From Actinomycetes bacterium (GTDB taxonomy: Bacteria > Actinomycetota > Coriobacteriia > Anaerosomatales > JAGXFU01): a stretch of 64,000 nucleotides of DNA. The notes beneath the pieces were generated by a model. The model saw only the letters and a program-made list of their open reading frames with translations. It was not told the origin of the DNA and did no database searches. The translations under genes and the position numbers were made by a program. The stretch is from the NCBI GenBank assembly GCA_024637115.1, contig JAGXFU010000008.1, positions 170,083 to 234,082 of the forward strand. Reading direction: 5' to 3'. Shown piece by piece: positions 4,800-25,857 of this stretch (the stretch's first letter is position 1; each line of letters starts with the position of its first letter).

Positions 4800-6344
4800 G
4801 TGAGTACCGACAAAGTCTATATATTCGATACAACGCTTCGGGATGGCGAGCAGTCGCCCGGCGCGAGCATGAACACCGATGAGAAGCTCGAGATCGCCCG
4901 ACAGTTGGTGCGTCTCGGAGTCGACGTGATCGAGGCGGGTTTTCCGATCTCGAGTCCCGGGGACTTCGAGAGCGTGCGACGGATCGGCGAGGAGGTCGGC
5001 GACGCGTGTGTGGTGTGTGCTCTGTCGCGCGCCGTGCCCAAGGATATCGAGCGAGCGGCCGAGGCTCTCAAAACGGCCGTCCGCCCGCGAATCCACACCG
5101 GTATCGGCGTGAGCCAGTCCCACCTTCGCGACAAATTGCGTATCTCCGAAGACACCGCCGTTGAACGTGGTGTCGCCGCAGTCAAGCTCGCGCGCAACTT
5201 TGTCGATGATGTCGAGTTCTATGCCGAAGATGCCGGACGCGCTGAACCGGCATTCCTGTATCGCATGATTCAGGAAGTCATCGCTGCAGGTGCGACGGTC
5301 GTGAATATCCCGGACACCACGGGCTATGCGTATCCGGAGAACTTCGGCGCACTCATCGCGGGCCTCGTTGAGCATGTGAGCGGTATCGAGAAGGCAATCA
5401 TCTCAGTGCACTGTCACAACGATCTCGGCATGGCCACAGCCAACGCTCTCGCGGGCGTGGCCGGCGGCGCGCGTCAGATCGAGTGCACGATCAACGGCCT
5501 TGGCGAACGTGCGGGCAACACGGCCATGGAGGAAGTCGTCATGGCGCTTCGCCAGCGACAGGATGTCTTTGGAGCGGATAGCACGGTCAATTCGCGCGAG
5601 ATCATGCGTACCTCACGACTTGTATCGAGCATCACCGGCATCAACGTCCAGCCGAACAAGGCGATTGTGGGAGCCAACGCGTTCGCGCACAGCAGCGGCA
5701 TTCACCAGGATGGGGTGCTCAAGGAGCGTTCCACCTACGAGATCATCGATCCTGCCGACGTTGGCGTAGGCGGCTCGAGCATCGTGCTGACCGCGCGCAG
5801 CGGGCGTCATGCCTTGAAGCATCGGCTCGAAGAGCTCGGATTCTCGCTGGCCGAGGCCGAGTTTGAGCCAGTCTATGATGCATTCCTCGAACTCGCTGAC
5901 AAGAAGAAGGAAGTCTACGACGAGGACCTTGAGGCGCTCGTTGGCGAACAGGAGCGGACAGTTCGCGAGGAGTTTCATATGGAGTCCGTGCAGGTCGTGT
6001 GTGGTGAGCCCGGTATCCCGACGGCTACCGTCGAGCTTGTCGATCGTGAGGGAAACCACATGATCGACTCAAGCCACGGTACCGGACCCGTCGACGCAGT
6101 CTATAAGGCGATCAACCGCATGATCGATGTGGAGAACGACCTGACGGAGTTCTCCGTGAAGTCGGTCACGCGTGGTATCGACGCACTTGGAGAAGTCACC
6201 ATTCGGGTGCGCGCCGCCGACGACCGCGTATTCACCGGCCGAGGAGCCCACAGCGACATCATCGTGGCCTCGGCAAAAGCGTATACGAACGCATTGAACA
6301 GGCTGCTAATCAGCCAGAGGAAGATCGTCGAAGAGGAGTTGTGA
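4800..6344 (+). CDS. leuA: 2-isopropylmalate synthase
   Basis: GTG start. Has the N-terminal [14 protein letters not shown] and HxH metal site ([10 protein letters not shown]), plus a C-terminal LeuA regulatory domain. 514 aa. Confidence 0.9.
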
Positions 6345-7615
6345 GCATGCCCCGACCCATGACCATCACCGAGAAGATCCTTGCGGCCCACTCCGGCCTT
6401 GATGAGGTGACTCCCGGACAGCTCATAGAGTGCGATCTCGACATCGTGCTTTCCAATGATGTGACTGCGCCGATCGCGATCAAGGAGTTCCGCAAGACCG
6501 GTCTGGACAAGGTCTGGGATCCCACCAAGATCGCGCTTGTTCCCGATCACTACACGCCAAACAAGGACATCAAGAGCGCCGAGCAGGCCAAGATGATGCG
6601 TGACTTCGTGCGCGAGCAGGAGATCACTCATTACTATGAGATCGGGTGCATGGGTGTCGAGCACGCACTTCTCCCGGAACAGGGCGTTGTTGGCGCGGGC
6701 GATGTGATTATCGGAGCCGATAGTCATACCTGCACGTATGGTGCGCTCGGAGCATTTGCCACCGGTGTCGGATCGACCGATGCCGCGGCAGGCATGGCAA
6801 CGGGTCAGGCATGGTTCAAGGTGCCTGCATCGCTCAAGTTCAACATCACCGGCGAACTGAGTGAGTGGGTGAGCGGCAAGGACGTTATCCTGCACATCAT
6901 TGGCATGATCGGGGTCGATGGTGCGCTCTATCAGTCGATGGAGTTCACCGGCGACACCATCGAGCGTATGGGCATGGATGATCGCATGACGATCTGCAAC
7001 ATGGCTATCGAGGCTGGCGGCAAGTCCGGCATCATTGCGGTCGATGACACCACCCGTGCGTATATGACCGACCGCGTGGAGCGCGAGTGGACCGAGTACT
7101 TCTCGGATCCGGATTCCGAGTACGCACAGGTCTATGAGATCGACGCTGCTGCGATCAAGCCGACCGTTGCGTTCCCGCATCTCCCTTCGAACACACGAAA
7201 TGCCGAGGATGCACGTGATATCTGGGTCGATCAGGTGGTCATCGGATCGTGCACGAACGGACGCATCGAAGACATGCGCATCGCAGCGAGCATCCTCAAA
7301 GGACGCAAGGCACACGAGAATGTGCGCCTGATCATCATTCCGGCCACCCAGGAGATCTATCGCCAGGCCATGCACGAGGGCTTGTTCGACATCTTCCTGG
7401 ATGCGAATGCGGCAGTCTCAACGCCTACCTGTGGTCCGTGTCTTGGCGGCCACATGGGCATCCTTGCGGCGGGAGAGCGTGCGGTGGCCACCACCAATCG
7501 CAACTTCGTCGGTCGAATGGGCGACCCCACGAGCGAGGTCTATCTGAGCTCACCTGCCGTGGCCGCGGCAACCGCGATCGCAGGACATATCGCGCTTCCT
7601 GGCGACCTGGGGTAA
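6341..7615 (+). CDS. leuC: 3-isopropylmalate dehydratase large subunit (short, about 420-aa type)
   Basis: Aconitase-family motifs are present ([29 protein letters not shown]). The GTG at 6341 overlaps the leuA stop, and an alternative ATG lies at 6347. Confidence 0.9.
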
Positions 7616-7816
7616 TATCACTCCACTACCAATGTTCATCTAGATTCATACTTGGTCTGGTATTTGCATTGGTATCAGTCGGCGAATCAAACGAAACACT
7701 ATGTGCAACGTGGGAGAGATTGCAGCTTGCTCACGCATGGTGTTTCCGCGCCCGCACTGAGTTAGGACTCCGTTTCTGTTCGCGGATGTGAATTCAATAG
7801 CGCTTCGGAGGGTGCA

Positions 7817-8659
7817 ATGCCTGAGTCGAATCAAGATCACAACGACCCGAATGAGGTTCAATTGGATAGAGAAGACGCCGTCTCGGACGCCTCTGAAGAC
7901 GTTGTTGATGCAGCAAGTCCCCCGGCTAGACCGGGAATCTTCGCTGATCCGGTTGTGCGAAGGTTGTCGTGGCTAGGCGGTCTCATGCTGGTGGCATTCC
8001 TCGCAGCCGTTGCATCGGCACTACTGTTCGGTGTGCTCAATCCGCCGGCTCCCCGTACCGCGAGCGAGCGAGATCTCAAGCTTGCTGAGACACAGATCGA
8101 TGCCGGAAGCACCGAGCCCGAAGTGTGGTTCTCCTACATTTCTGCGTTGATTTCCACCGATCAGTACTCAAAAGCTGAACGGATGATCAACAAGGCGCGA
8201 GATGCGGGCTACGAAGATCCCGCTAAGCAGTATTTGCTTGTTGCACAGGTGCGTCTTGATCTGGCGCGAGAAGAATACCAGGCGGCGCTTGACGACTCCG
8301 ACTTGGCTATCCAGGCGCTTGAGGCGCAGCTGGTGATCGAGGAGGAGCAGTTCGCCGGTACCAAGACGCCAACGGTGATGATTGCCGAGGGGCTTGGTGA
8401 GAACTACGAGACGCTCTTACTGAACCGGGCTGAGGCCTTCGAGAACCTCGGCCAGTCAGAAGATGCGATCGCCGCTCTCGATGAGTATCTGCTCAAAAAC
8501 GAGCGAGCCGCGGATATTCTCGTATGGAGAGGTGACCTGAAATCTGCCGCGGGCGATACTCAGGGGGCGATATCTGACTACGAGAACGCCTCCCAGTACA
8601 TGCCCGGTGACGAGGAAATCCTTAAGAAGCTAGCAGAACTGGGAGCAACAGATGGCTAA
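7817..8659 (+). CDS. membrane-anchored TPR-like repeat protein (module 1, gene 1)
   Basis: GGAGGG Shine-Dalgarno upstream. An acidic N-terminus is followed by one TM helix (WLGGLMLVAFLAAVASALLFGVL), the invariant LNPPAPRTA, then helical TPR-like repeats. It is a paralogue of 18850-19626. Confidence 0.75.
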   Translation: MPESNQDHNDPNEVQLDREDAVSDASEDVVDAASPPARPGIFADPVVRRLSWLGGLMLVAFLAAVASALLFGVLNPPAPRTASERDLKLAETQIDAGSTEPEVWFSYISALISTDQYSKAERMINKARDAGYEDPAKQYLLVAQVRLDLAREEYQAALDDSDLAIQALEAQLVIEEEQFAGTKTPTVMIAEGLGENYETLLLNRAEAFENLGQSEDAIAALDEYLLKNERAADILVWRGDLKSAAGDTQGAISDYENASQYMPGDEEILKKLAELGATDG

Positions 8660-9935
8660 GGCAGTACTCCATGACCAGTCGGGCTCAGCCGCTCATCTAG
8701 ACACAGACGAGTCGGGAGACCGGACCGTCAAGTCGAAGCGAGGTCGTCGGCTGGTAACCGTCATTCTCATCTTCTTGTTCCTGCTGCTGTGCGCGGCTTC
8801 GTACTTCTTGTTGAGGCTCGTTGTGCCTGCGGGAGATATTGCCACGAGCGATGAGGCGGGCGGTATCACGTGGGTGCGTTCGATATATGGATGGGGTCCG
8901 GGTCCGGATCAACAGTTGAGCAGACCTGGTGCCGTGGCGATCGCAGGAGACGGGACGATTCTTGTTCCTCAGATTTCCGGTAATGCTCAGGTACTTCGGT
9001 TCAACCCCGACGGGTCGTTCGACGGATCCTTCGACGGGGGAGAAGACGAAGGCCGCATACTCTATCCGACCGGCATTCGAGTAGGTCCTGACGGTGCTAT
9101 CTATGTCGTACAAACGACTCAAGGGAATCTGCTCAAGCTATCCCCTGACGGGAACGAGACGATCTTCGCCCTCGACGTGGTCGAGCCGAGTTCCGTTGCT
9201 GTCGCCGCTGACAGAATCGTGGTGGGTGCCAAAGAAGGATTCGCGATCCTCGACCTGGACGGTACTCCCGTCAACGTGATTGGAACCGGCGGATTCGCCG
9301 ATGATCAGTTCGATACCGTGTCCGGTGTCGCCATTGACGACAACGGTGACATCTACATCGTTGACACGTACAACAACCGAATCAGCAAGTACGACCAGGA
9401 CGGTCAGCGCATCTGGATCGTCACGACCGGTAATCCCGGCAACCAGAGCGCCAATCAGGGCGGGGGCAGTGTAAACGTCGAGACGGATGCTCCTGCCGGA
9501 ATGCAGACCCCCGGCACGGCCGTAATCGACGGCAATGGTCGTCTCGTGGTATTGGACATGCTCGACTTCTCCTTGGCGGTATTCGATTCCGAGAATGGTG
9601 ACTTTCTCGAGAAGTACGGGACGTTTGGCGCCGAAGAAGGCAAGTTCGTATACCCATCTGGCATCGCATACGACGCCGAGCGCGATTGGTTCGCAATCGG
9701 GGATCTGGGCAACGACAGGGTTCAGATTGTTCGCATTCCGGGTTCCTCGAGTTCTTCGCTGCTGCCGACAGCCAGACGCGCCCTCTCTGGGGCGCTCAGA
9801 GCTCTGCTCCTGCCGCTCATCCTGCTGCTGCTCGCTCTCGGATACTGGATCTATCGGAAAGTCCGTGAGCGACGCGCGAATCGTTTGGAGATGCACGAAT
9901 TCTCGGATGAGCATACACTTGAGAGCGCTGAATAG
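8652..9935 (+). CDS. NHL-repeat beta-propeller protein with N- and C-terminal TM anchors (module 1, gene 2)
   Basis: Has an 8-nt overlap with the upstream gene. TM helices are LVTVILIFLFLLLCAASYFLL and ALLLPLILLLLALGYWIY. About six NHL-like blades are visible (e.g. FDTVSGVAIDDNGDIYIVDTYNNRISKYD). Confidence 0.8.
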   Translation: MAKAVLHDQSGSAAHLDTDESGDRTVKSKRGRRLVTVILIFLFLLLCAASYFLLRLVVPAGDIATSDEAGGITWVRSIYGWGPGPDQQLSRPGAVAIAGDGTILVPQISGNAQVLRFNPDGSFDGSFDGGEDEGRILYPTGIRVGPDGAIYVVQTTQGNLLKLSPDGNETIFALDVVEPSSVAVAADRIVVGAKEGFAILDLDGTPVNVIGTGGFADDQFDTVSGVAIDDNGDIYIVDTYNNRISKYDQDGQRIWIVTTGNPGNQSANQGGGSVNVETDAPAGMQTPGTAVIDGNGRLVVLDMLDFSLAVFDSENGDFLEKYGTFGAEEGKFVYPSGIAYDAERDWFAIGDLGNDRVQIVRIPGSSSSSLLPTARRALSGALRALLLPLILLLLALGYWIYRKVRERRANRLEMHEFSDEHTLESAE

Positions 9936-9971
9936 CCGAACAAACCACTGCTCCGTCTTAAGTGATTAAGG

Positions 9972-10000: not shown

Positions 10001-10012
10001 GAGGGCTACTCA

Positions 10013-10059
10013 TGAGGATTCTGTCCTCAGGTAAGAATACTGTTCTCGGAACGGAGGTG
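10013..10059 (+). promoter_or_regulatory. structured leader conserved with 21004-21039
   Basis: Contains hairpin TGAGGA-ttctg-TCCTCA (10013-10029), imperfect inverted repeat AAGAAT-act-GTTCTC (10033-10047), and the block TTCTCGGAAcGGaGGTG (10043-10059). The block is shared with copy 2 at identical spacing to the ATG. Confidence 0.4.
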
Positions 10060-10065
10060 ATATAT

Positions 10066-11370
10066 ATGAAAGAGATCCATGTTTCTACTCACAACCAAAC
10101 AATGGGAGTACCAATGAAGAGGATATTTTTTGTTGCCACTCTGGCAATGATGCTGCTCTTGGCCTTCTCCAGCGTTGCGCTGGCCAAGGGTTATTCCCCC
10201 AGTAACCGTTCCTCCTCGTTCCTTGACAAGGGCGAGAGCTACGTCGCATGGGACAAGGCGCAGGCCACGATGGACCTCGCTTCTGAGACCAACACTGCGA
10301 GCGTTCATGGCAACTACACCACGACAACCGTTAAGTGCCAGGTTTGCCATTCCGCTCACAAGGCTGCCGCCGCAGGCGACACGCTTCTTCAGAGCACCGC
10401 TTCACAGGCTTGCGTGCCGTGCCACCTCGGCGCCAACGCGAGCTCGAGCACCAAGGTTTCTGAAGGTAATCGTCACGGTTCGGCCAGCGGCTGTACCAAC
10501 GGCTACTGCCACTCTGTGGCCCCGCACGGCGTTGGCGATATCTCTAGTTACGCCACGCTCTCTGGCGCGATGTTGACCGATCACGGCGACAGCCTTCTCG
10601 GCGCTGCAATTCTTTCGGGCAGCACCGGTAATCCTGAAGAGGGCTACATCTATGCCACAGGTTCTGACAGCTCACTCGTAGCGTCTCGTATCGCTACGAT
10701 GACTGTCTACAACCCCGGCGTGACCGCCGCGATCCTCAACGATACGAGCGATGCTGCAGCGATTTCGTTTGGTCGCGCAGTCGGTACCGGCTACATCTGC
10801 TCCAACGGTGGCTGTCACATGAACGGTGCCTTCAACGCACTGACCGCTGATGCGACCTGGAGCGAGTGGGGCGGAATGCTTCACACGGACCTCGCCGAAT
10901 ATGGCCAGCCGCTTGGCTATGGCACATGGTGGGGCCCCGTCGACGTTCCTGCGGGTGACTACGCGCAGGGGTCGATTATTTCCTCGGGCGGAGTCGACTA
11001 CGATGTCTGGGATCTCTTCGACATGCGTCAGGACGCTGTCAAGGGTCACACGCTCGCAGCCGTTGCTGATCTCACCACTCGTGACGTTGCATTCGCCAAC
11101 GTTGGCGCTTGCAAGACATGTCACGACAGCATTGACTACCGCATCAGCCCGACCGCCAAGCAGTTCCCGCATGGCAACGACGTCATCAACGTTGGTGGCT
11201 TTGATGAGGGCACGAACAGTGCTGCATGGTTCACCGTTGCCGGTTCTCTGGGCAGCGGCGACGCGACCACCACGGTTCGCGGCACCGGCATCACTTCTGG
11301 TAGTGACGGCGCTTGCATGAAGTGCCACCGCAACACCGGCGCAACTTCTGGTGTTGGCATCACCTACTAG
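10066..11370 (+). CDS. secreted hexahaem c-type cytochrome (4 CxxCH + 2 Cx4CH) (module 1, gene 3)
   Basis: The start at 10066 sits behind GGAGGTG plus 6 nt. An alternative in-frame start at 10114 (MKRIFF...) sits behind GGGAG. The signal peptide is ...FFVATLAMMLLLAFSSVALA/KG. Haem motifs are CQVCH, CVPCH, CTNGYCH, CSNGGCH, CKTCH and CMKCH. The protein is Gly/Thr/Ala/Ser-rich. Confidence 0.85.
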   Translation: MKEIHVSTHNQTMGVPMKRIFFVATLAMMLLLAFSSVALAKGYSPSNRSSSFLDKGESYVAWDKAQATMDLASETNTASVHGNYTTTTVKCQVCHSAHKAAAAGDTLLQSTASQACVPCHLGANASSSTKVSEGNRHGSASGCTNGYCHSVAPHGVGDISSYATLSGAMLTDHGDSLLGAAILSGSTGNPEEGYIYATGSDSSLVASRIATMTVYNPGVTAAILNDTSDAAAISFGRAVGTGYICSNGGCHMNGAFNALTADATWSEWGGMLHTDLAEYGQPLGYGTWWGPVDVPAGDYAQGSIISSGGVDYDVWDLFDMRQDAVKGHTLAAVADLTTRDVAFANVGACKTCHDSIDYRISPTAKQFPHGNDVINVGGFDEGTNSAAWFTVAGSLGSGDATTTVRGTGITSGSDGACMKCHRNTGATSGVGITY

Positions 11371-11496: not shown

Positions 11497-12456
11497 GTGA
11501 GTCTCAGCGAGAGCACACCGATGGACACCCGGGCGGCGCTGTTCCTGAAATGGACCGTTCGAATACTCCTGGCGTTCGTTGCCTTGAACGTGATTGCCAT
11601 TGGGGCGGTCTCGGTCGCTCCCGAGCGCTGTTCGAGTTGCCATCTCCAGGAACCGGATCCGATCGAAGTACGAGAGGCCCACGCGTTTGTCCGCTGCAAT
11701 GATTGTCATGGCGGTCTCACCACCATCGCGCAGGTTGATTTCGCCGCGCGGCAGGTCTACGGAATGTATCTCGGGCTGCCTGTGCTCAACGGGCGAACAA
11801 CTGCGGCAATCTCGGACAGTGCCTGTCTGAGCTGCCATGAACTATCGAGCACACCATCGAGCACGAGTGCCATTCGTATTAATCACGTCGCGTGTGTCGG
11901 CGACTTGTCGTGTACCGACTGTCACTCCCGCATTGCGCACGGCGATGATGTCCAATGGCCGCGCTCATACGACATGTTCGAGTGCGTGTCGTGCCATATG
12001 ACACGCTCCGTGTCAGTGGAATGCGACCTGTGCCACACAGCACGAACCCCGCAAGAGCGAATTCGCACAGGTTCATTCGCGCTTACCCATGCTGAGAACT
12101 GGAGGCAGGCGCATGGCATGGGGGATTCTCTCGCATGTGCAGCCTGCCATTCTGAGGACAAGTGCGTCCAGTGTCACGGCTCCGGCGTTCCGCACACCGC
12201 TGCGTTCGCGGTGAACCACAGCGAATTCGCGGTGTTGGACACGGCGCAGTGCACGACGTGCCACACTCCTCAGTTCTGTAGCGATTGCCACGGTCTCGAA
12301 ATGCCGCATCCTGAAACGTTCGCTTCGGAGCACGCAGCGCTCGTTGAAGCTGATGGCCGCGTGGCATGTGACAACTGCCATGCGGACTCAGACTGCACCA
12401 CCTGTCATATTCTCCATATCCATCCGGGGAATGCCGGTCAGGGCGGGGGCGACTAA
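11497..12456 (+). CDS. membrane-anchored dodecahaem cytochrome c with NapC/NirT-like N-terminus (module 1, gene 4)
   Basis: One TM helix (WTVRILLAFVALNVIAIGAVSVA) runs directly into CSSCH. I counted 12 CxxCH motifs. The start is GTG at 11497 or ATG at 11521. Confidence 0.85.
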   Translation: MSLSESTPMDTRAALFLKWTVRILLAFVALNVIAIGAVSVAPERCSSCHLQEPDPIEVREAHAFVRCNDCHGGLTTIAQVDFAARQVYGMYLGLPVLNGRTTAAISDSACLSCHELSSTPSSTSAIRINHVACVGDLSCTDCHSRIAHGDDVQWPRSYDMFECVSCHMTRSVSVECDLCHTARTPQERIRTGSFALTHAENWRQAHGMGDSLACAACHSEDKCVQCHGSGVPHTAAFAVNHSEFAVLDTAQCTTCHTPQFCSDCHGLEMPHPETFASEHAALVEADGRVACDNCHADSDCTTCHILHIHPGNAGQGGGD

Positions 12457-13646
12457 TGCAGGAGTTGCTGACACGGGACTACGGTGAGACGTTCAGGCTG
12501 ATATGGGAAATCATCATGGATCCCGCGTCCAAGCCTACCGAGGCGATGCTCGCTTTCGCCGTTATCGTGATCATCCTCGTCATTGCAATGATCGCAGTGA
12601 TTCTTCTTGTGATGCGAGGAACCGAAGATGAAGACGAGTCGCCTACGGGCGACCGGGTAGATGCCGTCAGCGCTCAGCGGGTGCGTACTGATTCCTCGGC
12701 AGAATCGGGTGCCACGACTGTGAGCCCTCGGCGCGTTTCCACACGTTGGATCGTCGTGGGGACACTGCTGCTCTGGTGGTTCGCCACCGGCTTGATGACA
12801 ACGCTTCCTTCCGTATGCGAGTCGTGCCATGTGGATGGCGCGCATACCACCACGAATGCAGCTGATCCGCATGAGGCGACATCCTGCATCCGTTGTCATG
12901 AGGCAGGTGGCTATGTCGGCGCGCTCACGACAGGAGTCCCGAGCCGCGTTTCCCATATCGTTTCGGGCGTGCTGAGCGATGACATGACCGGATCGTATGG
13001 CTTCATATCCAGCGGTGCATGCGCACAGTGTCATGATGCTCAAATTGCTGATACGACCACAAATGAGCTTCGAGCGGTCAAGATGTCTCATGTGGAGCCT
13101 ATCGAGGCAGGCGCTCAATGTCTCGATTGTCACCGACTGAGCGAGGGGGTCGTGGGTTTGTACACCACAGGGATGCGCCCATGCCTGCTGTGTCATGACA
13201 ATGATTCCGCACCGGGAGAGTGCTCGTACTGCCACACCGGTGACATCGCTCTCGCGATTACGAGCTCGAGCAGGGCGTCCACTTCGACCGCGCAACGACT
13301 CATTCCGAATCCGGACTGCGGAGGATGTCACGATCAGACTTCGTGCGATGCCTGTCATGGGCTCCGCATGCCCCATTCGGCTGAGTTCATGGAGTACGCG
13401 CACGCGCGGCAGGGCGTTGAGGATATCTGGTTCAATGCCGGCAGGACATGCGGAAAATGCCACAGCGATCAGAAACGTCCCTGCACTACATGTCACAAAG
13501 GGAGCTTCTCGTCACACGGTTCGGGGCTGATTCGCACACATAGCAGCGGTACGTCAGTCGGCTGCGATGTGTGCCACAGCGCGATGGCCTACCGCCCCCG
13601 CAGGGACTTCTGCATAGATCTGTGTCATCAACCCCAGGCTCCGTAG
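12456..13646 (+). CDS. membrane-anchored multihaem cytochrome c, 11 CxxCH + 1 Cx3CH (module 1, gene 5)
   Basis: Its start overlaps the upstream stop in TAATG. Two TM helices are followed by CESCH. 11 CxxCH motifs plus a terminal CIDLCH. Confidence 0.85.
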   Translation: MQELLTRDYGETFRLIWEIIMDPASKPTEAMLAFAVIVIILVIAMIAVILLVMRGTEDEDESPTGDRVDAVSAQRVRTDSSAESGATTVSPRRVSTRWIVVGTLLLWWFATGLMTTLPSVCESCHVDGAHTTTNAADPHEATSCIRCHEAGGYVGALTTGVPSRVSHIVSGVLSDDMTGSYGFISSGACAQCHDAQIADTTTNELRAVKMSHVEPIEAGAQCLDCHRLSEGVVGLYTTGMRPCLLCHDNDSAPGECSYCHTGDIALAITSSSRASTSTAQRLIPNPDCGGCHDQTSCDACHGLRMPHSAEFMEYAHARQGVEDIWFNAGRTCGKCHSDQKRPCTTCHKGSFSSHGSGLIRTHSSGTSVGCDVCHSAMAYRPRRDFCIDLCHQPQAP

Positions 13647-18150: not shown

Positions 18151-18645
18151 ATGAAGTTCCACGGAACGGCCCACAGATATGGACGTGACATCGACACCGA
18201 TGTGATCATCCCTGCGAGGTACCTCAACACGAGCATTCCCGAGGAACTGGCAAAGCACTGCATGGAGGATCTGGATGCCGAGTTCGTCTCAAAGATAGAG
18301 TTCGGAGACATTCTCGTTGCCGAGGAGAATTTCGGGTGCGGTTCAAGTAGGGAACATGCACCGATTTCGATCAGGGCGGCCGGCGTGAGCGTTGTGATCG
18401 CCAAGAGTTTTGCCCGGATATTCTATCGCAACGCGATAAATACGGGCCTGCCTATCATGGAAGCGCCCGAGGCGGTCGATGGAATCAGCATGGGGGATGA
18501 AGTCGAGGTCGATGCCGACGCCGGAATCATCGTGAACAAGACTACCGGCCAGACGTTTCGTGCTCAGCCGTTCCCCCCGTTCATCAAGGATATCATTGAG
18601 AAGGGTGGGCTGATCGAGGCGACCAAGGGCCGAATGGGCCAGTAG
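18151..18645 (+). CDS. leuD: 3-isopropylmalate dehydratase small subunit (short type, 164 aa)
   Basis: ATG at 18151 sits behind AGGAG. The sequence MKFHGTAHRYGRDIDTDVIIPARYL...GCGSSREHAP is the LeuD/aconitase swivel domain. The track ORF has a spurious 17-aa extension. Confidence 0.9.
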   Translation: MKFHGTAHRYGRDIDTDVIIPARYLNTSIPEELAKHCMEDLDAEFVSKIEFGDILVAEENFGCGSSREHAPISIRAAGVSVVIAKSFARIFYRNAINTGLPIMEAPEAVDGISMGDEVEVDADAGIIVNKTTGQTFRAQPFPPFIKDIIEKGGLIEATKGRMGQ

Positions 18646-18735: not shown

Positions 18736-18763
18736 TTGCTATCGGTAGGAGTTTTGCTAGTAT
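18736..18763 (+). promoter_or_regulatory. candidate promoter of module 2 (TTGCTA-N16-TGC-TAGTAT)
   Basis: The -35 TTGCTA is at 18736-18741 and the extended -10 TGCTAGTAT at 18755-18763. Confidence 0.45.
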
Positions 18764-18849
18764 TGCTTGCCGACTATTCAGATTGCGCAAGATACTGCTG
18801 ATTCGCAATGGTCTCCATTCGCATTCTTGTGATCACAGGAAGGTGGTAC

Positions 18850-19626
18850 ATGAGTCAGCTCTCAGAGGAGTCCCGCATGATGGATATCCAATCTGATTTG
18901 CCTCAACCCCGTCCGGCCGGCAAGGCCGGGGGGGTAACCAATCGGAGCCTTGTCCTTGCGATTCTCGTCGTGTCGGTTCTTTGGTTGTCGTTTCTCGCGT
19001 CCGCCCTCGTGCTAGGAATACTGAACCCGCCGGCGCCACGCACCGCGGTTGAGCGTTCGATTGGCGTCTATGGCGACGCCGTTGAGCAAGGCACAACGGA
19101 TGCGGTGATTTGGGCGGACTACATAAGTGCGCTCATCGCTGGAAAGCAGTACTCCCGGGCAGAGGGGGCGATAGAAGACGCTTTGGCTGCGGTTACCGAT
19201 AAGACCTCGCTCATACTTGCACAGAGGACACGACTCGATTTCGAGCTCGGCGACTATGAGAGCACAGTGGAGTCAGCCGACGGAGCCATCGCGGCTTCGC
19301 GAGAGGAAACGGACATCATGAGGGAGAATTTTGCGAAGCGGGGTATCACCTCCGAACCTGATCCCTCTCCTGCGCTCGCGAATGCACAGTTGCTCAAAGC
19401 TCAGGCGCTTGCAGAGCTTATGCAATTTGACGATGCAATTGAAGTGCTCGATGAGTTTCTTGAGACTGCTCCATCCGCCGCCGACGCCCTCGTTTTGCGT
19501 GCATCGTATAAGCGGGAAGCGGGCGACATTGATGGTGCCCGGGCTGACTATGAGCAGGCTCTCCTCTACATCCCCGACTATGCAGCAGCCCTCGAGGGCC
19601 TAGAGTCTATTGGAGCGATCGACTGA
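18850..19626 (+). CDS. membrane-anchored TPR-like repeat protein (module 2, gene 1)
   Basis: ATG at 18850 sits behind GGAAGGTGG. Has one TM helix, then LNPPAPRTA, then TPR-like repeats. It is collinear with 7817-8659. Confidence 0.75.
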   Translation: MSQLSEESRMMDIQSDLPQPRPAGKAGGVTNRSLVLAILVVSVLWLSFLASALVLGILNPPAPRTAVERSIGVYGDAVEQGTTDAVIWADYISALIAGKQYSRAEGAIEDALAAVTDKTSLILAQRTRLDFELGDYESTVESADGAIAASREETDIMRENFAKRGITSEPDPSPALANAQLLKAQALAELMQFDDAIEVLDEFLETAPSAADALVLRASYKREAGDIDGARADYEQALLYIPDYAAALEGLESIGAID

Positions 19627-20867
19627 TGCGTGAGCAGGCAATGAACGATGATTCACAGGTCGTTTCCTCGCCCAAGTCAACCACCCGCCGCGCGTTGATT
19701 CTGGTGCTGACGGCCCTGGTGCTCATTCTCCTGGGGACGAGCTACTTTCTCTACTCGATAATCAAACCGGTGGGACGCGTTGCAACCATCGAGGAAGCAG
19801 GCGGGCTTGAGTGGGTGCGCTCCATCTACGGGTACGGTGACACGCTCGAAGAACAGTTGCGCCAGCCCAATGATGTCGCAATCGGCCCTGATGGCACGAT
19901 TTGGATTACCGATCAAACCAAGCAGCAGGTCGTGGGATTCAATCCCGACGGGAGTTTCGAGGCGTTGCTTCACCAGGGTCCACGAGGGTCATCTCCGCAT
20001 GCGTTCTCTTTTCCGAATGCTCTGGCGGTCGATGAAGAGGGACTTATCTACGTTGGAGACTCCGAAAAGGATCGCATTACTGTTCTTCGCAGGGACAATA
20101 CGGTGGTTCTCGAGTACGTAGTTCCCGACGTGCGTTCGGTTGCGGTTCGCGGGGATCGTGTCGTGGCTGGTTCGATTGCGGGATTTGTCATTCTTGACAA
20201 GGCTGGCGAAGTCGTCAGGCTTCTCGGAACTCGAGGGCAAGGAATTGACCAATTCGATACTGTGTCGGGCGTTGCGGTGTCGCCGAGCGGGATGATCTAC
20301 GCTGTTGACACGTATAACAACCGGTTGAGTGCCTACGACCGTGATGGGAATCGCCTGTGGATTCGTCAACTCGGCGTTCCGGGCAATCAAGGGGGACAGA
20401 TACAGAGCGAAGGACTGTCGGGAGAGGAGGGTCAATCGCCGGAGACGCAGCTCCCTCTCCGTTTGACCCTCGACGGAGCGGGAAGGCTCGTCGTGGTGGA
20501 CTCGTTCGACTTCAGCATCACTGTACTTGACCCCGCCGACGGGCATTTGATTGGGAAGTACGGCGCCCCAGGAGATGCTGAGGGTCAGTTCACGTATCCT
20601 GTTGGAATTGACTATGATGAATCCAGGGACTGGTTTGCCGTCGCGGATCTCTACAATAGCCGTGTACAGGTTGTCAGGATTCCCGATTCGGGAAATCGGC
20701 CGTTGTCGCCCGTATTGCGCAGTCTGTCGGGTCCGTGGCGCGCATGTCTGTTCCCGCTGGCGCTGCTCCTCATGCTGATACTGGTTGCGTTGGTCGTTCG
20801 CCGGCGTCGTCGGTCGCGGGCTCGTGCTGAGCGTGCAGCATTCGAACAGGCTCCAGCGCAGGAGTAG
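19626..20867 (+). CDS. NHL-repeat beta-propeller protein with N- and C-terminal TM anchors (module 2, gene 2)
   Basis: TGATG overlap with the upstream stop. TM helices are ALILVLTALVLILLGTSYFLY and ACLFPLALLLMLILVALVV. NHL blades are present (QFDTVSGVAVSPSGMIYAVDTYNNRLSAYD). Confidence 0.8.
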   Translation: MREQAMNDDSQVVSSPKSTTRRALILVLTALVLILLGTSYFLYSIIKPVGRVATIEEAGGLEWVRSIYGYGDTLEEQLRQPNDVAIGPDGTIWITDQTKQQVVGFNPDGSFEALLHQGPRGSSPHAFSFPNALAVDEEGLIYVGDSEKDRITVLRRDNTVVLEYVVPDVRSVAVRGDRVVAGSIAGFVILDKAGEVVRLLGTRGQGIDQFDTVSGVAVSPSGMIYAVDTYNNRLSAYDRDGNRLWIRQLGVPGNQGGQIQSEGLSGEEGQSPETQLPLRLTLDGAGRLVVVDSFDFSITVLDPADGHLIGKYGAPGDAEGQFTYPVGIDYDESRDWFAVADLYNSRVQVVRIPDSGNRPLSPVLRSLSGPWRACLFPLALLLMLILVALVVRRRRRSRARAERAAFEQAPAQE

Positions 20868-20933
20868 GGTTGTGCCTGGGTGAACCGTTGACAGAAAAGC
20901 CATTGCCAAGCGCAGATTCTTTGCTCATTCCTA

Positions 20934-20962
20934 TTGAACTGTCCGATACAAGTCTCTAATAT
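20934..20962 (+). promoter_or_regulatory. sigma-70-like promoter of hexahaem gene 2 (TTGAAC-N17-TAATAT)
   Basis: The -35 TTGAAC is at 20934-20939, followed by a 17-nt spacer and the -10 TAATAT at 20957-20962. It lies in an AT-richer spacer. Confidence 0.55.
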
Positions 20963-21003
20963 CAGTTAAGCATCAAAACAGGACACTTGTGCGCGCAATC
21001 AGT

Positions 21004-21039
21004 GTTCTGTAGATGAGAATCATTCTCGGAAGGGGGGTG
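21004..21039 (+). promoter_or_regulatory. leader element conserved with 10013-10059
   Basis: Contains TTCTGT (21004-21009), the perfect palindrome GAGAAT-c-ATTCTC (21015-21027), and the block TTCTCGGAAgGGgGGTG (21023-21039). The block sits 15 nt before ATG 21046, the same spacing as in copy 1. Confidence 0.4.
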
Positions 21040-21045
21040 TGTTCG

Positions 21046-22251
21046 ATGAATGAGATGTCCAGAAGTGAGATCAACGGAGGAGCCTTTATGAAGAGAATCA
21101 TATCCATCGCGGTCTTGGCCGCACTGATGGTTTTTGCAATGAGCGGCGTTGCGATGGCGAAGAACGCCGTCGTTAATTGGCCTGCTGCTGGTTCTGTGGC
21201 AGAGGGACCTGATTCGTACCTGATTTACAACCCCTGGACCACAACGGCTACGGCTACGTGGGCTGCCGATGATTTTGCGGCGAATGCAGGGTATACGTCA
21301 CCGCATGGCGGTTACACCACCACGACTGTCAAGTGTGCTGTCTGCCACGCGGTTCACGTAGCCTCAGCTGAAGGCGACACCTTGCTCAAGATGCCGGCGA
21401 ATGAAGCCTGCGTTTCATGCCATGTTGCGGCACAGCTTGGCGGCACGAACATGGTCTACGGCGGAGACGCTGCTATTGCCAACGCGAGCGGCATGGATCA
21501 CCACACGACGAGCAGCAACTGTTCCCGGTGTCATGCTACTGTGCACGGCGCCGGCGCAATCGCTGATGTGCCGTCGATCACCTCGATCATTCTTGCTGAA
21601 GAGTACAGCAACGATGACATGAACCCTCGCATCGTCAACAGCTGGATTACCACCGGTACAGCTATTGCCGGTATGACTACTGCTCAGGTTGACACACTGC
21701 TGAATACCGATGCTAGCGCCGCCACGCGCGAGGTCGCCATCGGTCTGTTCTGTCAGGGTTGCCACTCTGGTTCATACCAGAATGGTGTAGCCGGTACCCT
21801 TGGCAACGGCAATGACGGTGTCGCAATCGGCGATCGTACAGGTCACCGTGTTGGTTCAGCCGTGGTAGCCAATGCTTCATACGATGCACCGTATGCCTAC
21901 AACCTCGACGCTACGAGTACCGTTTCCTACACGGGTCAGGTTGCCTGGGCTGCCGCTACTAACTGCAAGTCGTGTCACGACGCGACGCAGTTCGCTGACG
22001 GTACGGGTGGATCTGGATTCCCGCACTTCACCCAGGGCGCAGCTCGCTTCCTCAATAGGGCGGCGTCTGCGACCGATCTGTCCGGTCCTACCGGCGTATC
22101 TGTTTCGGCCGACGCGTCCTATGCGGGTACCGAGACCGCTACGTACTCAGGCACGGGTGACGGCGCAGTTGCAGAGTTTTCTCTCCGCGACGGTGTTTGC
22201 CTCAAGTGTCACAAGGGAGACGCGGCCACGGGTGTTGGTCAGGAGTACTAG
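21046..22251 (+). CDS. secreted hexahaem c-type cytochrome (6 CxxCH) (module 2, gene 3)
   Basis: Start at 21046, or alternatively at 21088 (MKRIISIAV..., GGAGGAG Shine-Dalgarno). The signal peptide is ...LAALMVFAMSGVAMA/KN. Haem motifs are CAVCH, CVSCH, CSRCH, CQGCH, CKSCH and CLKCH. Confidence 0.85.
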   Translation: MNEMSRSEINGGAFMKRIISIAVLAALMVFAMSGVAMAKNAVVNWPAAGSVAEGPDSYLIYNPWTTTATATWAADDFAANAGYTSPHGGYTTTTVKCAVCHAVHVASAEGDTLLKMPANEACVSCHVAAQLGGTNMVYGGDAAIANASGMDHHTTSSNCSRCHATVHGAGAIADVPSITSIILAEEYSNDDMNPRIVNSWITTGTAIAGMTTAQVDTLLNTDASAATREVAIGLFCQGCHSGSYQNGVAGTLGNGNDGVAIGDRTGHRVGSAVVANASYDAPYAYNLDATSTVSYTGQVAWAAATNCKSCHDATQFADGTGGSGFPHFTQGAARFLNRAASATDLSGPTGVSVSADASYAGTETATYSGTGDGAVAEFSLRDGVCLKCHKGDAATGVGQEY

Positions 22252-22292
22252 TCTCTTATCAGAGGTTTGTGATCGACCCATGCTTCTTGGGT

Positions 22293-22318
22293 GGGGCCGG
22301 CTCTTCGGAGTCGGCCCC
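22293..22318 (+). terminator. GC-rich stem-loop after hexahaem gene 2
   Basis: An 11-bp stem GGGGCCGGCTC (22293-22303) / GAGTCGGCCCC (22308-22318) has a TTCG loop. No clear U-tract follows. Confidence 0.5.
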
Positions 22319-22427
22319 GCTTGCTTGCACTTCAGTGTGGACACTGTGCATTCCAACCCCGGCCGTCGAGTTTACGCTGGCATAGTACTTGTTTGATGCT
22401 TGATGCTTACTAGGAGTCGGTTGCCTC

Positions 22428-23450
22428 GTGCCCTCGGTTACCAACATGCAGACAAGCGATGCTCCGGATGCCGCATCTCCTGAGGGAGTCGTGGCGGATT
22501 CCGGTGCATTGGTTTTTGTGCGATGGGTATTTGTCGGACTGGCGCTCCTGGCGCTTGTGTTCACTGTCTCGATTGCCTATGTTGCCGTTGCGCAGCCAGG
22601 TTGTGAGTCGTGCCATCTTGTCGGGGAGTATGGCGAGGCAACAATCGCAAGCTCGCACGCTTCCGTGAAGTGCATGGCGTGTCATCCGGGGAGTGGAGTG
22701 CTTCAGCGGCTTTCATTCTCGTCAAATGTGGTCAACTCCATGCTTCTCGGGATAGTTCCCTCTCAGGGAAGGCCGGGAGCGAGCGTCGAGGATGCGGCAT
22801 GCCTCGCGTGCCACGACTTAGTGCTTGAGCAACTCACGGATTCCAAAGGCTATCGCATCCAGCATCTCACGTGTGCCGCTGATCGCAGCTGCGTGGACTG
22901 CCATTCTTCGGTGGCGCATGGTTCAGCTTCCACGTGGCCGCGCTCATCGGAGATGTCTGTCTGCGTCGAGTGCCACGACGGTGCGACCGCTTCAAATCAA
23001 TGCGATGCGTGCCACTCCGGAAAGACGGAGTCTGAACGTATTGGTCAAGGCGCTTGGCGGGTCACGCATGGCCAGGACTGGCGTAGTGCTCATGGCATGG
23101 GGAACTTTGAGACATGCTCTGCGTGTCACCCTAAGGACTACTGTGTTCGTTGCCATGGTATCGCGCTCCCTCATGACGAGGACTTCATGAGGGAACACGC
23201 TGTCCTTTCTCTCACCCCCGGCTCTCTTTGCGATGATTGTCATCACACTTCGTTTTGCAGCGACTGCCACGGAATCGAAATGCCGCATCCTGTCACCTTT
23301 ATTGCCGAGCATGCAGTGATCGTGGCTGCTGAAGGCGATGATGTCTGTATTGAGTGCCATAAGGCTTCCGATTGTGCAAACTGTCATCTCCTGCACGTTC
23401 ACCCTGGTCTGTCTGACGCTGCTCTTGATTCTCTCGGGGGTGTGCGCTAG
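22428..23450 (+). CDS. membrane-anchored dodecahaem cytochrome c with NapC/NirT-like N-terminus (module 2, gene 4)
   Basis: GTG start 11 nt after AGGAG. One TM helix is followed by CESCH. I counted 12 CxxCH motifs. Confidence 0.85.
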   Translation: MPSVTNMQTSDAPDAASPEGVVADSGALVFVRWVFVGLALLALVFTVSIAYVAVAQPGCESCHLVGEYGEATIASSHASVKCMACHPGSGVLQRLSFSSNVVNSMLLGIVPSQGRPGASVEDAACLACHDLVLEQLTDSKGYRIQHLTCAADRSCVDCHSSVAHGSASTWPRSSEMSVCVECHDGATASNQCDACHSGKTESERIGQGAWRVTHGQDWRSAHGMGNFETCSACHPKDYCVRCHGIALPHDEDFMREHAVLSLTPGSLCDDCHHTSFCSDCHGIEMPHPVTFIAEHAVIVAAEGDDVCIECHKASDCANCHLLHVHPGLSDAALDSLGGVR

Positions 23451-24652
23451 TGGACAGCCAGCGCTTCATTGACACCCTCGGTGCAATACCTGACATCATC
23501 CGAGAACCTTCGGTCAACATGACCGCGGCAGTGCTTCTTCTGGCTGTTATCACCACCATGCTCCTGATAGCAGTAATCGCCGGACTCTTGTATCTGCTCA
23601 GGGGTGATGGCGCCGATAGGCGAGAAGCTGACATCTCAGCCACCAACGACGTGGTCTTGGGCGGAGACGGGCTCACTCACTCACTCGCGCCTCCTCCAGC
23701 CACTCGAGCATTTCAGTCGATGGCGTTCGTAGGCTTGGGGACAGCGGCTTGCCTCGTTCTGTGGGCCGCACTAGGAGTCTCGTCGTCTGCCGGATCGGTC
23801 TGCGAGTCTTGCCATTCGGATAGCCCGCACGTGGGTTCTGAGTCAATCGACCCCCACTCCGCCGTGGCGTGCACCTTGTGCCATGAGCCGGGTGGAGTCT
23901 TCGAGCGCGTGATTCCGAACGTGCCCGGGCGCTTGGCGCATATTCTGCGGGGCCAACTCTCTGAAGCGCAATCTGATTCATCGTATGGGTCCCCCATCTC
24001 TTCGCGGGAGTGCAGTGGCTGTCATGCTGCGGGTTTGAACGAGATCACTGTGGACGAGCAGCGGGGCGTTCTCATGTCCCATCAAGAGCCGCTCGAAGCG
24101 GGAGCGGAGTGCATGGATTGTCATGTTCTTCGTGGGGGGGTCGTGTCCGATCAGACCATTGGACATGATCCATGCCTCCGTTGCCACGGGACGACAGGAG
24201 TCTCGGCTGACTGCGGCACGTGCCATTCCAAGGAGCCGGCTTATGCGATTCGATCGGATCTCGTGCCGGCGGGTTCACGAGCGAGGGAACACGTGCCTGA
24301 TCCGACATGCGGAGGTTGCCATTCGGAGCGGTCCTGTGACGCGTGTCATGGAATGCGCATGCCTCATTCTGCTGCATTCAAGGGGATTGGGCACGCACGC
24401 CTCGCCACCATTGACATATGGGGGAACGGTGGGAGAGCCTGTCAAAGGTGTCACTACAGTGGTCACAACGCATGCAGCCAGTGTCATTCAGGCAGTTTCC
24501 CCGCACATGCGCTCTCCTGGCGATTGGATCATCAGCAAGCCGACGACGCCAAGCAGAGCTGCGCTTGCCATCTCACGCCTAATCTGATTGCCGACCCGAA
24601 CCGGACGTTCTGCGACATCTGCCATGATCCGGCGTATCAGGTTGAACGTTGA
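23450..24652 (+). CDS. membrane-anchored multihaem cytochrome c, 11 CxxCH (module 2, gene 5)
   Basis: TAGTG overlap with the upstream stop. Two TM helices are followed by CESCH. 11 CxxCH motifs plus an odd CACH where the paralogue has CDVCH. Confidence 0.85.
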   Translation: MDSQRFIDTLGAIPDIIREPSVNMTAAVLLLAVITTMLLIAVIAGLLYLLRGDGADRREADISATNDVVLGGDGLTHSLAPPPATRAFQSMAFVGLGTAACLVLWAALGVSSSAGSVCESCHSDSPHVGSESIDPHSAVACTLCHEPGGVFERVIPNVPGRLAHILRGQLSEAQSDSSYGSPISSRECSGCHAAGLNEITVDEQRGVLMSHQEPLEAGAECMDCHVLRGGVVSDQTIGHDPCLRCHGTTGVSADCGTCHSKEPAYAIRSDLVPAGSRAREHVPDPTCGGCHSERSCDACHGMRMPHSAAFKGIGHARLATIDIWGNGGRACQRCHYSGHNACSQCHSGSFPAHALSWRLDHQQADDAKQSCACHLTPNLIADPNRTFCDICHDPAYQVER

Positions 24653-24707
24653 ACGGTGTTAGCACGGCGCTGAGTCGCGCGGCGCGCAAGGAAGCTAGCT
24701 TCTCGTC

Positions 24708-24716
24708 TGCTAGACT
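24708..24716 (+). promoter_or_regulatory. extended -10 element TGCTAGACT upstream of leuB
   Basis: Lies 32 nt upstream of the leuB GTG. The same 9-mer class recurs at four other gene starts (see findings). No convincing -35 was found. Confidence 0.35.
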
Positions 24717-24747
24717 CGACGCACGTTTCTGATAGGGAGGAACCGCA

Positions 24748-25857
24748 GTGACGAACCCAAGGCGCATCTGTCTGTTGCCCGGAGACGGGATCGGGCCTGA
24801 GATCACCGTCGAGGCGGTCAAGGTGCTCGATGCAATCGGCGCCTTGAATGATGTAACGTTTTCCTATGACGAGGCGCTCCTCGGCGGAATAGCCATCGAC
24901 GCAACCGGTTCTCCGTTACCCGATGCTACGCTTGATGCGGCACGAGCCGCAGACGCCGTGTTACTGGCTGCGATCGGTGGCCCCAAGTGGGACACGACTG
25001 ACCCGGACAAGCCGCGACCAGAGCAGGGGCTCCTCGGCATACGCAAGGCGTTGGGTCTGTTTGCCAATCTCCGGCCAGTCAAGTTGTTCCCCGCGCTCGT
25101 GGGTGCATCTTCGCTCAAGCCGGAGCATCTTGAAGGCGTCGACATGCTGATCGTGCGTGAGCTCACGGGTGGCATCTATTTTGGCGAACGCGGGCGCGAG
25201 CGCGATGTGCCCGGCGCCGGTGCCGACGGCGGTTCCGGGATGCGCGCGTATGACACCGAGGTGTATGCGGAGTATGAGATCGAACGAATCGCCCGTATTG
25301 CGTTCGATGCCGCGCGTACACGCCGCAACAAGGTGCACTCTGTTGACAAGGCAAACGTGCTGGAGTCGAGTCGCCTGTGGCGGGAGGTTGTTCACCGCGT
25401 GCATGATGCGGAGTACTCCGATGTGGAGCTCGTCGATCAGCTGGTCGACAACTCGGCCATGCAACTCGTTCGCTGGCCGGCTCAGTTCGATGTCATGGTC
25501 ACCGGCAATATCTTTGGCGACATCCTCTCCGATGAAGCGTCGATGCTGACCGGTTCGCTCGGAATGCTTGCAAGTGCATCGCTTGGCGATGGAACTGCGC
25601 TCTACGAGCCGAGCCATGGATCGGCGCCTGATATCGCCGGCCAGGGGGTCGCAAACCCACTTGCGATGCTGCTCTCCGTCGAACTGATGCTTCGTCACAG
25701 CTTCGAGATGCATGGCGCGGCCGATACGCTCTCGACAGCGATCGAGAATGTGCTCGCCGAGGGTTGGCGAACGCGTGATATCGCCGATGAGGGTACACCT
25801 GCGGATCGACTCGTGGGCACAAGCGAGATGGGCGACCTGGTCGTCACACAGCTGTAG
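24748..25857 (+). CDS. leuB: 3-isopropylmalate dehydrogenase
   Basis: 369 aa with [13 protein letters not shown], the [21 protein letters not shown] motif and full-length collinearity with LeuB. Confidence 0.95.

Follow-up and report, generated by a model that had tools for sequence, protein, structure and literature searches.

Variable surface loci can lie between housekeeping genes. In Enterobacteriaceae, galF and gnd enclose the O-antigen cluster, and in pneumococci dexB and aliA enclose the capsule locus. For the genes of leucine biosynthesis, the adjacency of leuC and leuD is treated as near-universal and serves as a heuristic for annotation and operon prediction. In this study, we have explored a leucine cluster that departs from this rule, in a stretch of 64,000 nt (the window) of contig JAGXFU010000008.1 (positions 170,083-234,082 of the forward strand, assembly GCA_024637115.1; coordinates below are window positions). 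There, leuC, leuD and leuB are held apart by two modules of multiheme cytochrome genes. We consider it probable that the chromosomes of an Anaerosomatales-related environmental lineage of Coriobacteriia usually have this layout, and that it is an old and reshuffling nest of cell-envelope cassettes rather than a fresh insertion.

The 80 best LeuD loci among species-representative genomes (the leuD-centred sample) all belong to Coriobacteriia. The nearest of them (80-90% identity) come from metagenome-assembled genomes of environmental origin that bear the labels Coriobacteriia, Actinomycetota or Anaerosomatales, the last being an order of Coriobacteriia, and the relatives below about 78% identity are gut Eggerthellaceae and other Coriobacteriales. 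Judged by these protein matches, the window organism is an Anaerosomatales-like member of Coriobacteriia. A Geobacter-type origin, suspected from cytochrome c7 matches, was ruled out, the close LeuD relatives all being Coriobacteriia. The two cultured members of Anaerosomatales carry 17-18 multiheme cytochromes, and one conserved cluster combines two 'quinol oxidizing' multihemes with an MtrA homologue (PMC9686372). The leu genes are unmentioned in that description, and its supplement has no locus table tying cytochrome clusters to leu genes; our literature search for an interleaving of leu and cytochrome genes turned up no mention either.

The split leu cluster among relatives

The leucine genes of the window stand in the order leuA-leuC-leuD-leuB-ilvE on the plus strand. 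Like the other genes, they were identified from NCBIfam/TIGRFAM scores against curated cut-offs, Pfam matches and a transmembrane scan. The first, leuA (2-isopropylmalate synthase, 4800-6344; NF002086, 762 bits), has its stop overlapping the start of leuC by 4 nt, and therefore the two are probably still translationally coupled. leuC (6341-7615; TIGR02083, 702.8 bits against a cut-off of 610.65) and leuD (18151-18645; TIGR02084, 247.3 and thus just above the cut-off of 245.85) encode the large and small subunits of 3-isopropylmalate dehydratase, both exceeding the equivalog cut-offs of the short archaeal-type enzyme. leuB (24748-25857), which has a GTG start and a GGGAGG ribosome-binding site, encodes 3-isopropylmalate dehydrogenase and also exceeds its own cut-off (TIGR00169, 475.6 against 353.2). 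Two independent public assemblies also place the start of leuD at the ATG at 18151, which has AGGAG as ribosome-binding site upstream. These positions and gene identities agree with the preliminary description of this DNA, which had placed gaps of 10.5 and 6.1 kb on either side of leuD; they measure 10,535 bp between leuC and leuD and 6,102 bp between leuD and leuB. The next junction, between leuB and ilvE (25939-26913, NCBIfam scan), is an empty slot of 81 nt in the window; in L083, L084, L091, L113 and L136 (L-numbers denote the loci of relatives compared with the window) it is occupied by a module.

The three separated genes are all intact, and no second leuC, leuD or leuB lies within the 64 kb. 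Against eleven relatives, whatever their arrangement, dN is 0.08-0.20 and dS is above 1, and the ratio of nonsynonymous to synonymous substitution rates (dN/dS) is about 0.05-0.12 with dS saturated (leuC, about 0.1). leuC, leuD and leuB are under strong purifying selection and are not decaying duplicates; in the window, the leu genes are single-copy and functional. Elsewhere in the window, biosynthetic genes are packed closely on the plus strand, with cimA, a FAH-family gene, dnaE, hisZ/G/D/C/B, trpE/GD/C/B/F/B/A and nadE. The his and trp genes identified there (35610-54054) form compact plus-strand runs with no foreign genes interposed, an internal contrast to the leu cluster, which is therefore the one place in the window where such interleaving is seen.

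To place this arrangement among relatives, window proteins were mapped on the 80 loci of the leuD-centred sample and all open reading frames (ORFs) were clustered. All synteny statements are based on tblastn maps, because antisense ORFs displace leuD in the gene calls of some loci. leuC and leuD are adjacent in 33 of the 35 informative loci of gut Coriobacteriales versus 7 of 37 in the environmental group, where the remaining 30 are split. The statement of the preliminary description that the two genes are almost always adjacent holds in general and for gut Coriobacteriales, but not for the window's own clade, in which the split is the majority state. For leuD and leuB, adjacency is seen in 21/34 gut and 22/40 environmental loci. 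The same synteny comparison, which had been proposed as a check, found leuC, leuD and leuB contiguous, and the leu slots free of cassettes, in four environmental loci (L036, L040, L042 and L048); in contiguous relatives, 17-23 nt separate leuC from leuD.

The gaps of the environmental group hold three types of cargo. The first is the same five-gene cytochrome cassette as in the window. The second is a membrane protein of the Wzy_C type (O-antigen-ligase-like), which stands alone or beside the cassette. The third is a set of glycan or glycosylation genes, comprising a PglF-like dehydratase, a DegT aminotransferase, a PglD-like acetyltransferase and a PglC-like initiating transferase, with GT2 and GT4 glycosyltransferases, a flippase, ManC and epimerases. 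Because the genome loci had been picked via leuD, we made a second search from the side of the modules, using 14 aligned NHL proteins as the query against a separate collection, that of JGI metagenome contigs. Of the 35 modules whose flanks are informative, 30 belong to the leu/ilv cluster, where they occupy the slots leuC|leuD, leuD|leuB and leuB|ilvE.

Based on these distributions, we propose that the leuC|leuD, leuD|leuB and leuB|ilvE spacers of the ilv-ser-leu cluster act as cargo slots for cell-envelope genes. The main cargo would be a five-gene cassette for membrane-anchored proteins, encoding a TPR protein, an NHL propeller, a secreted cytochrome with 4-6 hemes (cytochrome A) and two NrfH/NapC-like cytochromes with 11-12 hemes (cytochromes B and C), and in relatives the same slots also contain genes for protein or polysaccharide glycosylation and Wzy_C-type ligases.

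Two further observations concern the slots. A bacillosamine-type, protein-glycosylation-like set (PglF-like, DegT, PglD-like, PglC-like and GT4) and Wzy_C ligase-like proteins are found in leu slots, the set lying upstream of leuD in L007, L024, L029, L037 and L038 and between leuD and leuB in L008, L010, L014 and L015. The set often adjoins a cytochrome cassette, and some of the Wzy_C proteins have TPR tails; surface cytochromes or an S-layer might be glycosylated in these organisms. Separately, the leuD|leuB spacer is also variable in gut Coriobacteriales, where 11 of 34 are split and two more loci have no leuB in the stored flank. The examples (L053, L055, L056, L066, L068, L072, L076 and L078; Eggerthellaceae, Ellagibacter) have mixed cargo: aminotransferases, a Cys/Met pyridoxal-phosphate enzyme, sortases, DUF6541 and a 445-aa protein of unknown function. 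The weakness of the leuD|leuB junction may predate the cytochrome cassettes.

Cassette lineages and their slots

In the window, the leuC-leuD gap holds five plus-strand module genes (module 1) and three minus-strand MFS/spermidine-synthase-like genes (spd1 to spd3), and the leuD-leuB gap holds the same five gene types (module 2, 18808-24652). The two modules are paralogous, as the preliminary description had it, and they correspond gene for gene. Their amino-acid identity is 28-45%, and at the DNA level they share only short patches of 72-76% identity.

The relationships of the modules were drawn from a tree of NHL proteins that took in 81 modules, supplemented by best-hit tables. Module 1 groups with the cassettes of L084, L083 and L043. 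Compared with L084, its TPR protein is 67% identical, its NHL protein 71% and its three cytochromes 61, 58 and 52%; compared with L083, the range is 52-67%. In both of these loci, the module-1-type cassette occupies the leuB|ilvE slot, with a minus-strand spd3 behind it that is 66-71% identical to the one in the window, and in L043 the cassette lies after leuB, the stored sequence ending inside the cassette. Module 2 groups with L091 (NHL, 60%), where the cassette again lies between leuB and ilvE, and with cassettes after leuC (L094, L097) or after leuD (L090, L095, L096, L100). The module-2 type thus uses all three slots, and the module-1 type is found in leuC|leuD (window), in leuB|ilvE (L083, L084) and after leuB (L043). 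Since each module is closer to cassettes of other species in other slots, the split between the two lineages predates these species and positions have been reshuffled since. On these protein comparisons, cassette lineage and slot are independent.

These results bear directly on the origin of the pair. The preliminary description suggested leuD as the pivot of a duplication or insertion history, and in its simplest form this would mean that one cassette beside leuD was duplicated locally in this lineage. The shared order and orientation of the five genes, their paralogy and the position of the module-1 and module-2 lineages as neighbouring clades in both the NHL and TPR trees are in its favour. 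The identity of only 28-45%, the short DNA patches, and the closer counterparts that each module has in other species and other slots (L084 at 52-71%, L083 at 52-67%, L091 at 60% for NHL) speak against it; with a lineage split older than these species, the present positions are secondary. We find a local duplication around leuD unlikely, with a recent event of this kind already refuted for the most part, and the pivot was not borne out.

Flanks were also compared with cargo, in loci where the whole leuC-to-leuB interval is visible. L012 and L104 (flanks 96% identical, NHL 89%), L021 and L110 (93% and 82%) and L113 and L136 (85% and 82%) have matching cassettes in the same slots. L043 and L126, which are sisters in both the LeuC and the LeuD+LeuB trees, have flanks 88-97% identical (mean 91%) and NHL proteins of only 33-41% identity, in different slots, and L110 and L126, with flanks at 86%, carry NHL proteins 41% identical in the same slots. 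The cargo does not follow its flanks, and the presence of orthologous cassettes in some pairs and of unrelated ones at similar or closer relatedness fits the replacement of cassettes or the sorting of old paralogues.

We propose, then, that an old duplication of the cassette was followed by relocation from slot to slot and by replacement, or sorting between lineages, and that two anciently diverged cassette lineages would now fill leuC|leuD and leuD|leuB in the window, the first with its companion spd genes. Relocation and replacement would most likely have gone through ordinary recombination and not through a site-specific element.

The spd genes and the modules outside the leu cluster deserve a separate word. 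Genes of the spd type accompany cytochrome cassettes in L083 and L084 (module-1 type), L086, L087, L103, L125 and L037, on either strand, and adjoin leuD in L018, which suggests that they belong to an extended cassette. The modules outside the leu context (L108, L116, L128, L137 and L139, and also L142) stand beside very large ORFs of 1,000-1,900 aa, at a GC content of 58-67%. The non-leu modules all lie within one major branch of the NHL tree, apart from the module-1 and module-2 lineages.

Junctions, composition and transcription

The source of the window appears to be metagenome-derived, and an assembly chimera joining pieces that are not contiguous in the cell has to be considered. The exact LeuD protein occurs in two independent Logan assemblies, one contig spanning spd3 to leuD and the other leuD to the TPR gene of module 2, and both contigs agree with the window at 100% identity, also within the spacers. 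Exact-protein look-ups with leuB, leuC and the module 1 TPR protein, made for the junctions at 7616 and 24747, returned no record of an independent contig. Junctions of the same kind recur in unrelated assemblies (leuC to module in L012, L021, L030, L104, L110 and L126; module to leuB in L013, L029, L043 and L084), and the same kind of leu/cassette interleaving is found in dozens of them. A chimera is extremely improbable on this evidence, and the split of the leu genes is real.

A second possibility is that the modules are recent islands, acquired horizontally when mobile DNA entered the leu operon in two places. We found no direct repeats at the four junctions, whether pairing 7616 with 18150, 18646 with 24747 or any other two, no tRNA or tmRNA in the 64 kb, and no match to integrase or transposase families among the gap genes in Pfam and NCBIfam scans. 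Plasmid homologues of the NHL protein were limited to generic propeller matches, and cytochrome C had no phage match. Composition, the profile of which across the junctions had been proposed as a check, deviates only mildly. GC is 0.576-0.585 in the modules against 0.598-0.605 in the flanks, and GC at third codon positions (GC3) 0.58-0.67 against 0.69-0.79, with module 2 the lowest in the region (0.58-0.62). The modules are thus 2-3 points lower in GC and 6-20 points lower in GC3 than neighbouring genes. Tetranucleotide distances (z about +1.8 for module 1 and about +3.5 for module 2) are mild as well and are confounded by the composition of cytochrome and membrane-protein genes. The distance of module 2 (18808-24652), at 0.0159, exceeds that of every background window (maximum 0.0143), a mild hint that its history or level of expression differs.

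The deviations in composition and the differences in cassette content between close relatives are what recent islands would lead one to expect. Part of the compositional shift is, however, expected from Cys/His-rich, membrane-protein coding sequence, and the four junctions lack the hallmarks of mobile elements, plasmid or phage homologues do not go beyond the generic NHL fold, and the same cassette family sits in the same operon across dozens of species. We therefore regard recent islands as very improbable, in agreement with the preliminary description, which had seen no recent mobile island here.

The interruptions have consequences for transcription, and the preliminary description held that leuD and leuB need promoters of their own. 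For leuD, this is borne out by gene orientation. The 4.2 kb directly upstream lie on the opposite strand and are followed by a divergent spacer of 312 nt between spd3 and leuD (17839-18150), which is 100% identical in the independent assembly L001; therefore leuD must have its own promoter within these positions, from which it would be transcribed. For leuB the need is not strict, since module 2 precedes the gene on its own strand at a distance of 95 nt and no terminator is detectable in between, but the candidate put forward for it is still plausible. This candidate, an extended -10, is TGCTAGACT at 24708-24716 (+), 32 nt upstream of the GTG. leuB would be transcribed from it, by read-through from module 2, or by both. 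In the window, leuD and possibly leuB would then be separate transcription units.

The 9-mer TGCTAGACT recurs at 31687-31695, in the spacer before a small ORF that precedes dnaE. The wider motif TGNTANNNT is depleted in the window (22 copies, 38 ± 7 expected), and 5 of its 13 plus-strand copies lie in spacers, a short way before the start of a gene or operon: module 2 (18755-18763, as TGCTAGTAT), leuB (24708-24716), the ORF preceding dnaE (31687-31695), hisZ (35504-35512) and trpE (45515-45523). On the minus strand, TGGTAGAAT at 17875-17883 is a candidate promoter of spd3. TGCTAGNNT alone is not over-represented. Altogether, TGNTANNNT may be the main promoter type of the organism. More general scans had less to offer: a sigma-70 scan found 4 promoter-like sites (shuffle mean, 7.9) and a terminator scan 8 terminator-like sites (shuffle mean, 12.2), in both cases with none at a junction, folding of the junction spacers gave z values from -1.3 to +1.2, and no Rfam element (riboswitch, T-box or leader) was found in the 64 kb. 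The window spacers matched the two identical Logan contigs and none of the 80 species representatives, and so gave no basis for defining a conserved promoter or attachment-like sequence.

The orientation of the cassettes also raises the question of selected functional coupling, in which cassettes would sit in leu transcription units for co-expression, for example for the iron supply of the Fe-S enzyme LeuCD. Across the loci, TPR (43/43), NHL (50/50) and cytochrome A genes (35/35) are all co-oriented with the leu genes, the spacers from the last cytochrome gene to leuD or leuB are short (about 50-150 nt), and the junctions show no terminators, as such coupling would predict. In a few loci, the cytochrome B-C pair has the opposite orientation. 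Nearly all genes of the 64-kb window are on the plus strand, however, and co-orientation may reflect a general strand bias. Glycan and spd genes use the same slots in either orientation. Moreover, seven environmental representatives keep leuC and leuD adjacent, including the four that are contiguous and cassette-free, and we know of no biochemical link between leucine biosynthesis and cytochromes. Coupling of this kind is, in our opinion, unlikely.

The explanation that we favour, an old and reshuffling cassette nest, has its own difficulties. The nearest relatives are only about 90% identical in LeuD, and no event can be dated or mapped to the base. We saw no gradient of identity toward the cargo in the flanking leu genes and no recombination breakpoints. 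At the DNA level, breakpoints between L097 and either L095 or L100 were not mappable, the cassettes being only about 70% identical and the spacers unalignable. The trees are neighbour-joining trees of single proteins with no support values, and those of LeuC and LeuD+LeuB agree only partly (pairwise-distance correlation, r = 0.60). The window spacers, including 7616-7816, contain no relics of leu or module genes, and neither they nor any of the loci hold leu pseudogene relics that would document duplication followed by loss. Over all loci, partial leu matches are contig-edge truncations and two likely frameshifts, in leuB of L057 and leuC of L119. In addition, 5 of the 35 modules lie outside a leu context (at least 9 kb on both sides with no leu/ilv gene), and the association is strong and not absolute. 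The mild tetranucleotide and GC3 deviation of the modules leaves room for an older foreign origin, no leuD promoter was located by any motif tried, and the electron-transfer role of the modules comes from annotation only. As to the two likely frameshifts, leuB of L057 is in two pieces (690-1559) and L119 has a detached C-terminal leuC fragment (1845-1988); a frameshift, an assembly error or a real pseudogene is possible in both.

Gene content and likeness to known systems

Module 1 begins after a spacer of 201 nt (7616-7816), the first half of which is AT-rich and in which no terminator was detected. Its genes are on the plus strand. The TPR protein (7817-8659; Pfam TPR families) has one N-terminal transmembrane helix, and the NHL-repeat beta-propeller (8652-9935; Pfam NHL) has a helix at both ends. 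Cytochrome A (10012-11370) has 4 CXXCH and 2 variant heme motifs (motif and transmembrane scans), and cytochrome B (11497-12456) has 12 CXXCH, the first right after the N-terminal helix, which is an NrfH/NapC-like layout. Cytochrome C (12456-13646; Pfam Cytochrome_C7 and Cytochrom_c3_2) is membrane-anchored with 11-12 heme motifs, and its match to Pfam Cytochrom_NNT (NapC/NirT), at 21.9 bits, is weak and under the cut-off of 24.1.

The three minus-strand genes follow. spd1 (13667-14368) encodes a polytopic membrane protein resembling the N-terminal part of membrane-bound polyamine aminopropyltransferase (NF002956 and NF037959, both below cut-off). spd2 (14374-16074; NF037959, 105.5 bits; Pfam Spermine_synth) and spd3 (16252-17838; NF037959, 259 bits) encode fused MFS/spermidine-synthase-like membrane proteins.

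In module 2, also on the plus strand, the TPR gene (18808-19626; Pfam) is followed by the NHL-repeat propeller (19626-20867; Pfam NHL, 79.6 bits; 45% identical to the module 1 copy), cytochrome A (21013-22251; 6 CXXCH and a signal peptide), cytochrome B (22428-23450; 12 CXXCH and an NrfH-like N-terminus) and cytochrome C (23450-24652; 11 CXXCH). In each module, an N-terminal transmembrane helix or a signal peptide is present in all five proteins, and the NHL protein also has a C-terminal helix. In both modules, cytochrome A probably starts at an internal Met codon, some 25-35 codons downstream of the first codon of the longest ORF, where a Sec-type signal peptide begins (MKRIFF... and MKRIIS...); in module 1, the true start is probably near 10114.

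In both modules, cytochromes B and C have 11-12 heme motifs, the first directly after the membrane helix, compared with 4 hemes in the NapC/NirT/NrfH family. Residues 40-165 of cytochrome B of module 2 match the quinol dehydrogenase NrfH (PDB 2j7a) with an E value of 3.7e-7. Cytochrome A of module 2 weakly matches chain A of structure 6r2q, which we take to be MtrA. The chain (333 residues) is labelled 'Cystathionine beta-synthase', apparently a database naming error. The structure belongs to the Mtr complex of Shewanella baltica (PMC7198977). Cytochrome clusters for electron transfer in unrelated bacteria repeatedly contain NHL and TPR proteins as well (PMC9769857; bioRxiv 10.1101/2022.05.06.490989). 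Reading the gene types together, the module is most likely a membrane-anchored chain that would carry electrons from quinol to an external acceptor.

The closest described systems on the side of the cargo are thus the extracellular electron transfer (EET) clusters with NHL and TPR proteins, such as DFE_0451/0463 of Desulfovibrio ferrophilus (PMC9769857), Uet of Tenderiales (bioRxiv 10.1101/2022.05.06.490989) and those of Anaerosomatales (PMC9686372). As in these clusters, the window modules bring together an NHL propeller, a TPR protein and several multiheme cytochromes, among them an NrfH/NapC-like membrane-anchored cytochrome and one weakly resembling 6r2q chain A, a likeness of gene types and not a direct homology comparison with the proteins named in those papers. 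Unlike them, the window modules belong to a monoderm actinobacterium, have no outer-membrane porin gene and lie inside an amino-acid operon.

On the side of the host genes, the comparison is with canonical leuABCD or leuCD-leuB operons. The window has the same equivalog enzymes, in the order leuA-leuC-leuD-leuB-ilvE and with the coupling of leuA and leuC kept, but unlike in the canonical operons, leuC and leuD are 10.5 kb apart and leuD and leuB 6.1 kb apart. Importantly, a whole environmental order-level lineage breaks the leuC-leuD adjacency rule in a patterned way. Its leu cluster holds most of the detectable copies of this multiheme-cytochrome cassette family (the 30 of 35 informative modules), and its content varies sharply between close relatives. 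The cytochrome modules of the window would be native, long-resident genes and not recent imports.

We can take this one step further, tentatively. The leu cluster of Anaerosomatales-like Coriobacteriia could be a dedicated site for the diversification of surface respiratory machinery, the respiratory equivalent of an O-antigen locus, in which whole cassettes are swapped from lineage to lineage and moved from slot to slot by homologous recombination with the leu genes as anchors. The interleaved essential genes would then protect tandem paralogous cassettes from recombinational collapse, because such a deletion would cause leucine auxotrophy. This is speculative, and we think it possible rather than probable. 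If the variability does reflect cassette exchange, respiratory surface machinery would be organised and diversified in the manner of surface antigens, and the conserved leu genes could be used as anchors for PCR or long reads to survey cytochrome diversity in subsurface Actinomycetota.

In conclusion, by analogy, the feature would most resemble the variable surface loci that lie between conserved housekeeping genes. There are clear differences between the O-antigen and capsule loci and the leu cluster. The leu cargo is interleaved within one pathway at three slots or more, instead of occupying a single site between unrelated genes; it consists mainly of respiratory multiheme cytochromes instead of polysaccharide genes; and its flanks show no detected breakpoints. 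Nevertheless, the likeness extends to several features at once. As in those loci, the flanks are conserved essential or core genes, the cargo serves cell-surface functions, the leu slots of relatives hold glycan-synthesis genes, and close relatives (L043 and L126, L110 and L126) carry cargo that is not orthologous.

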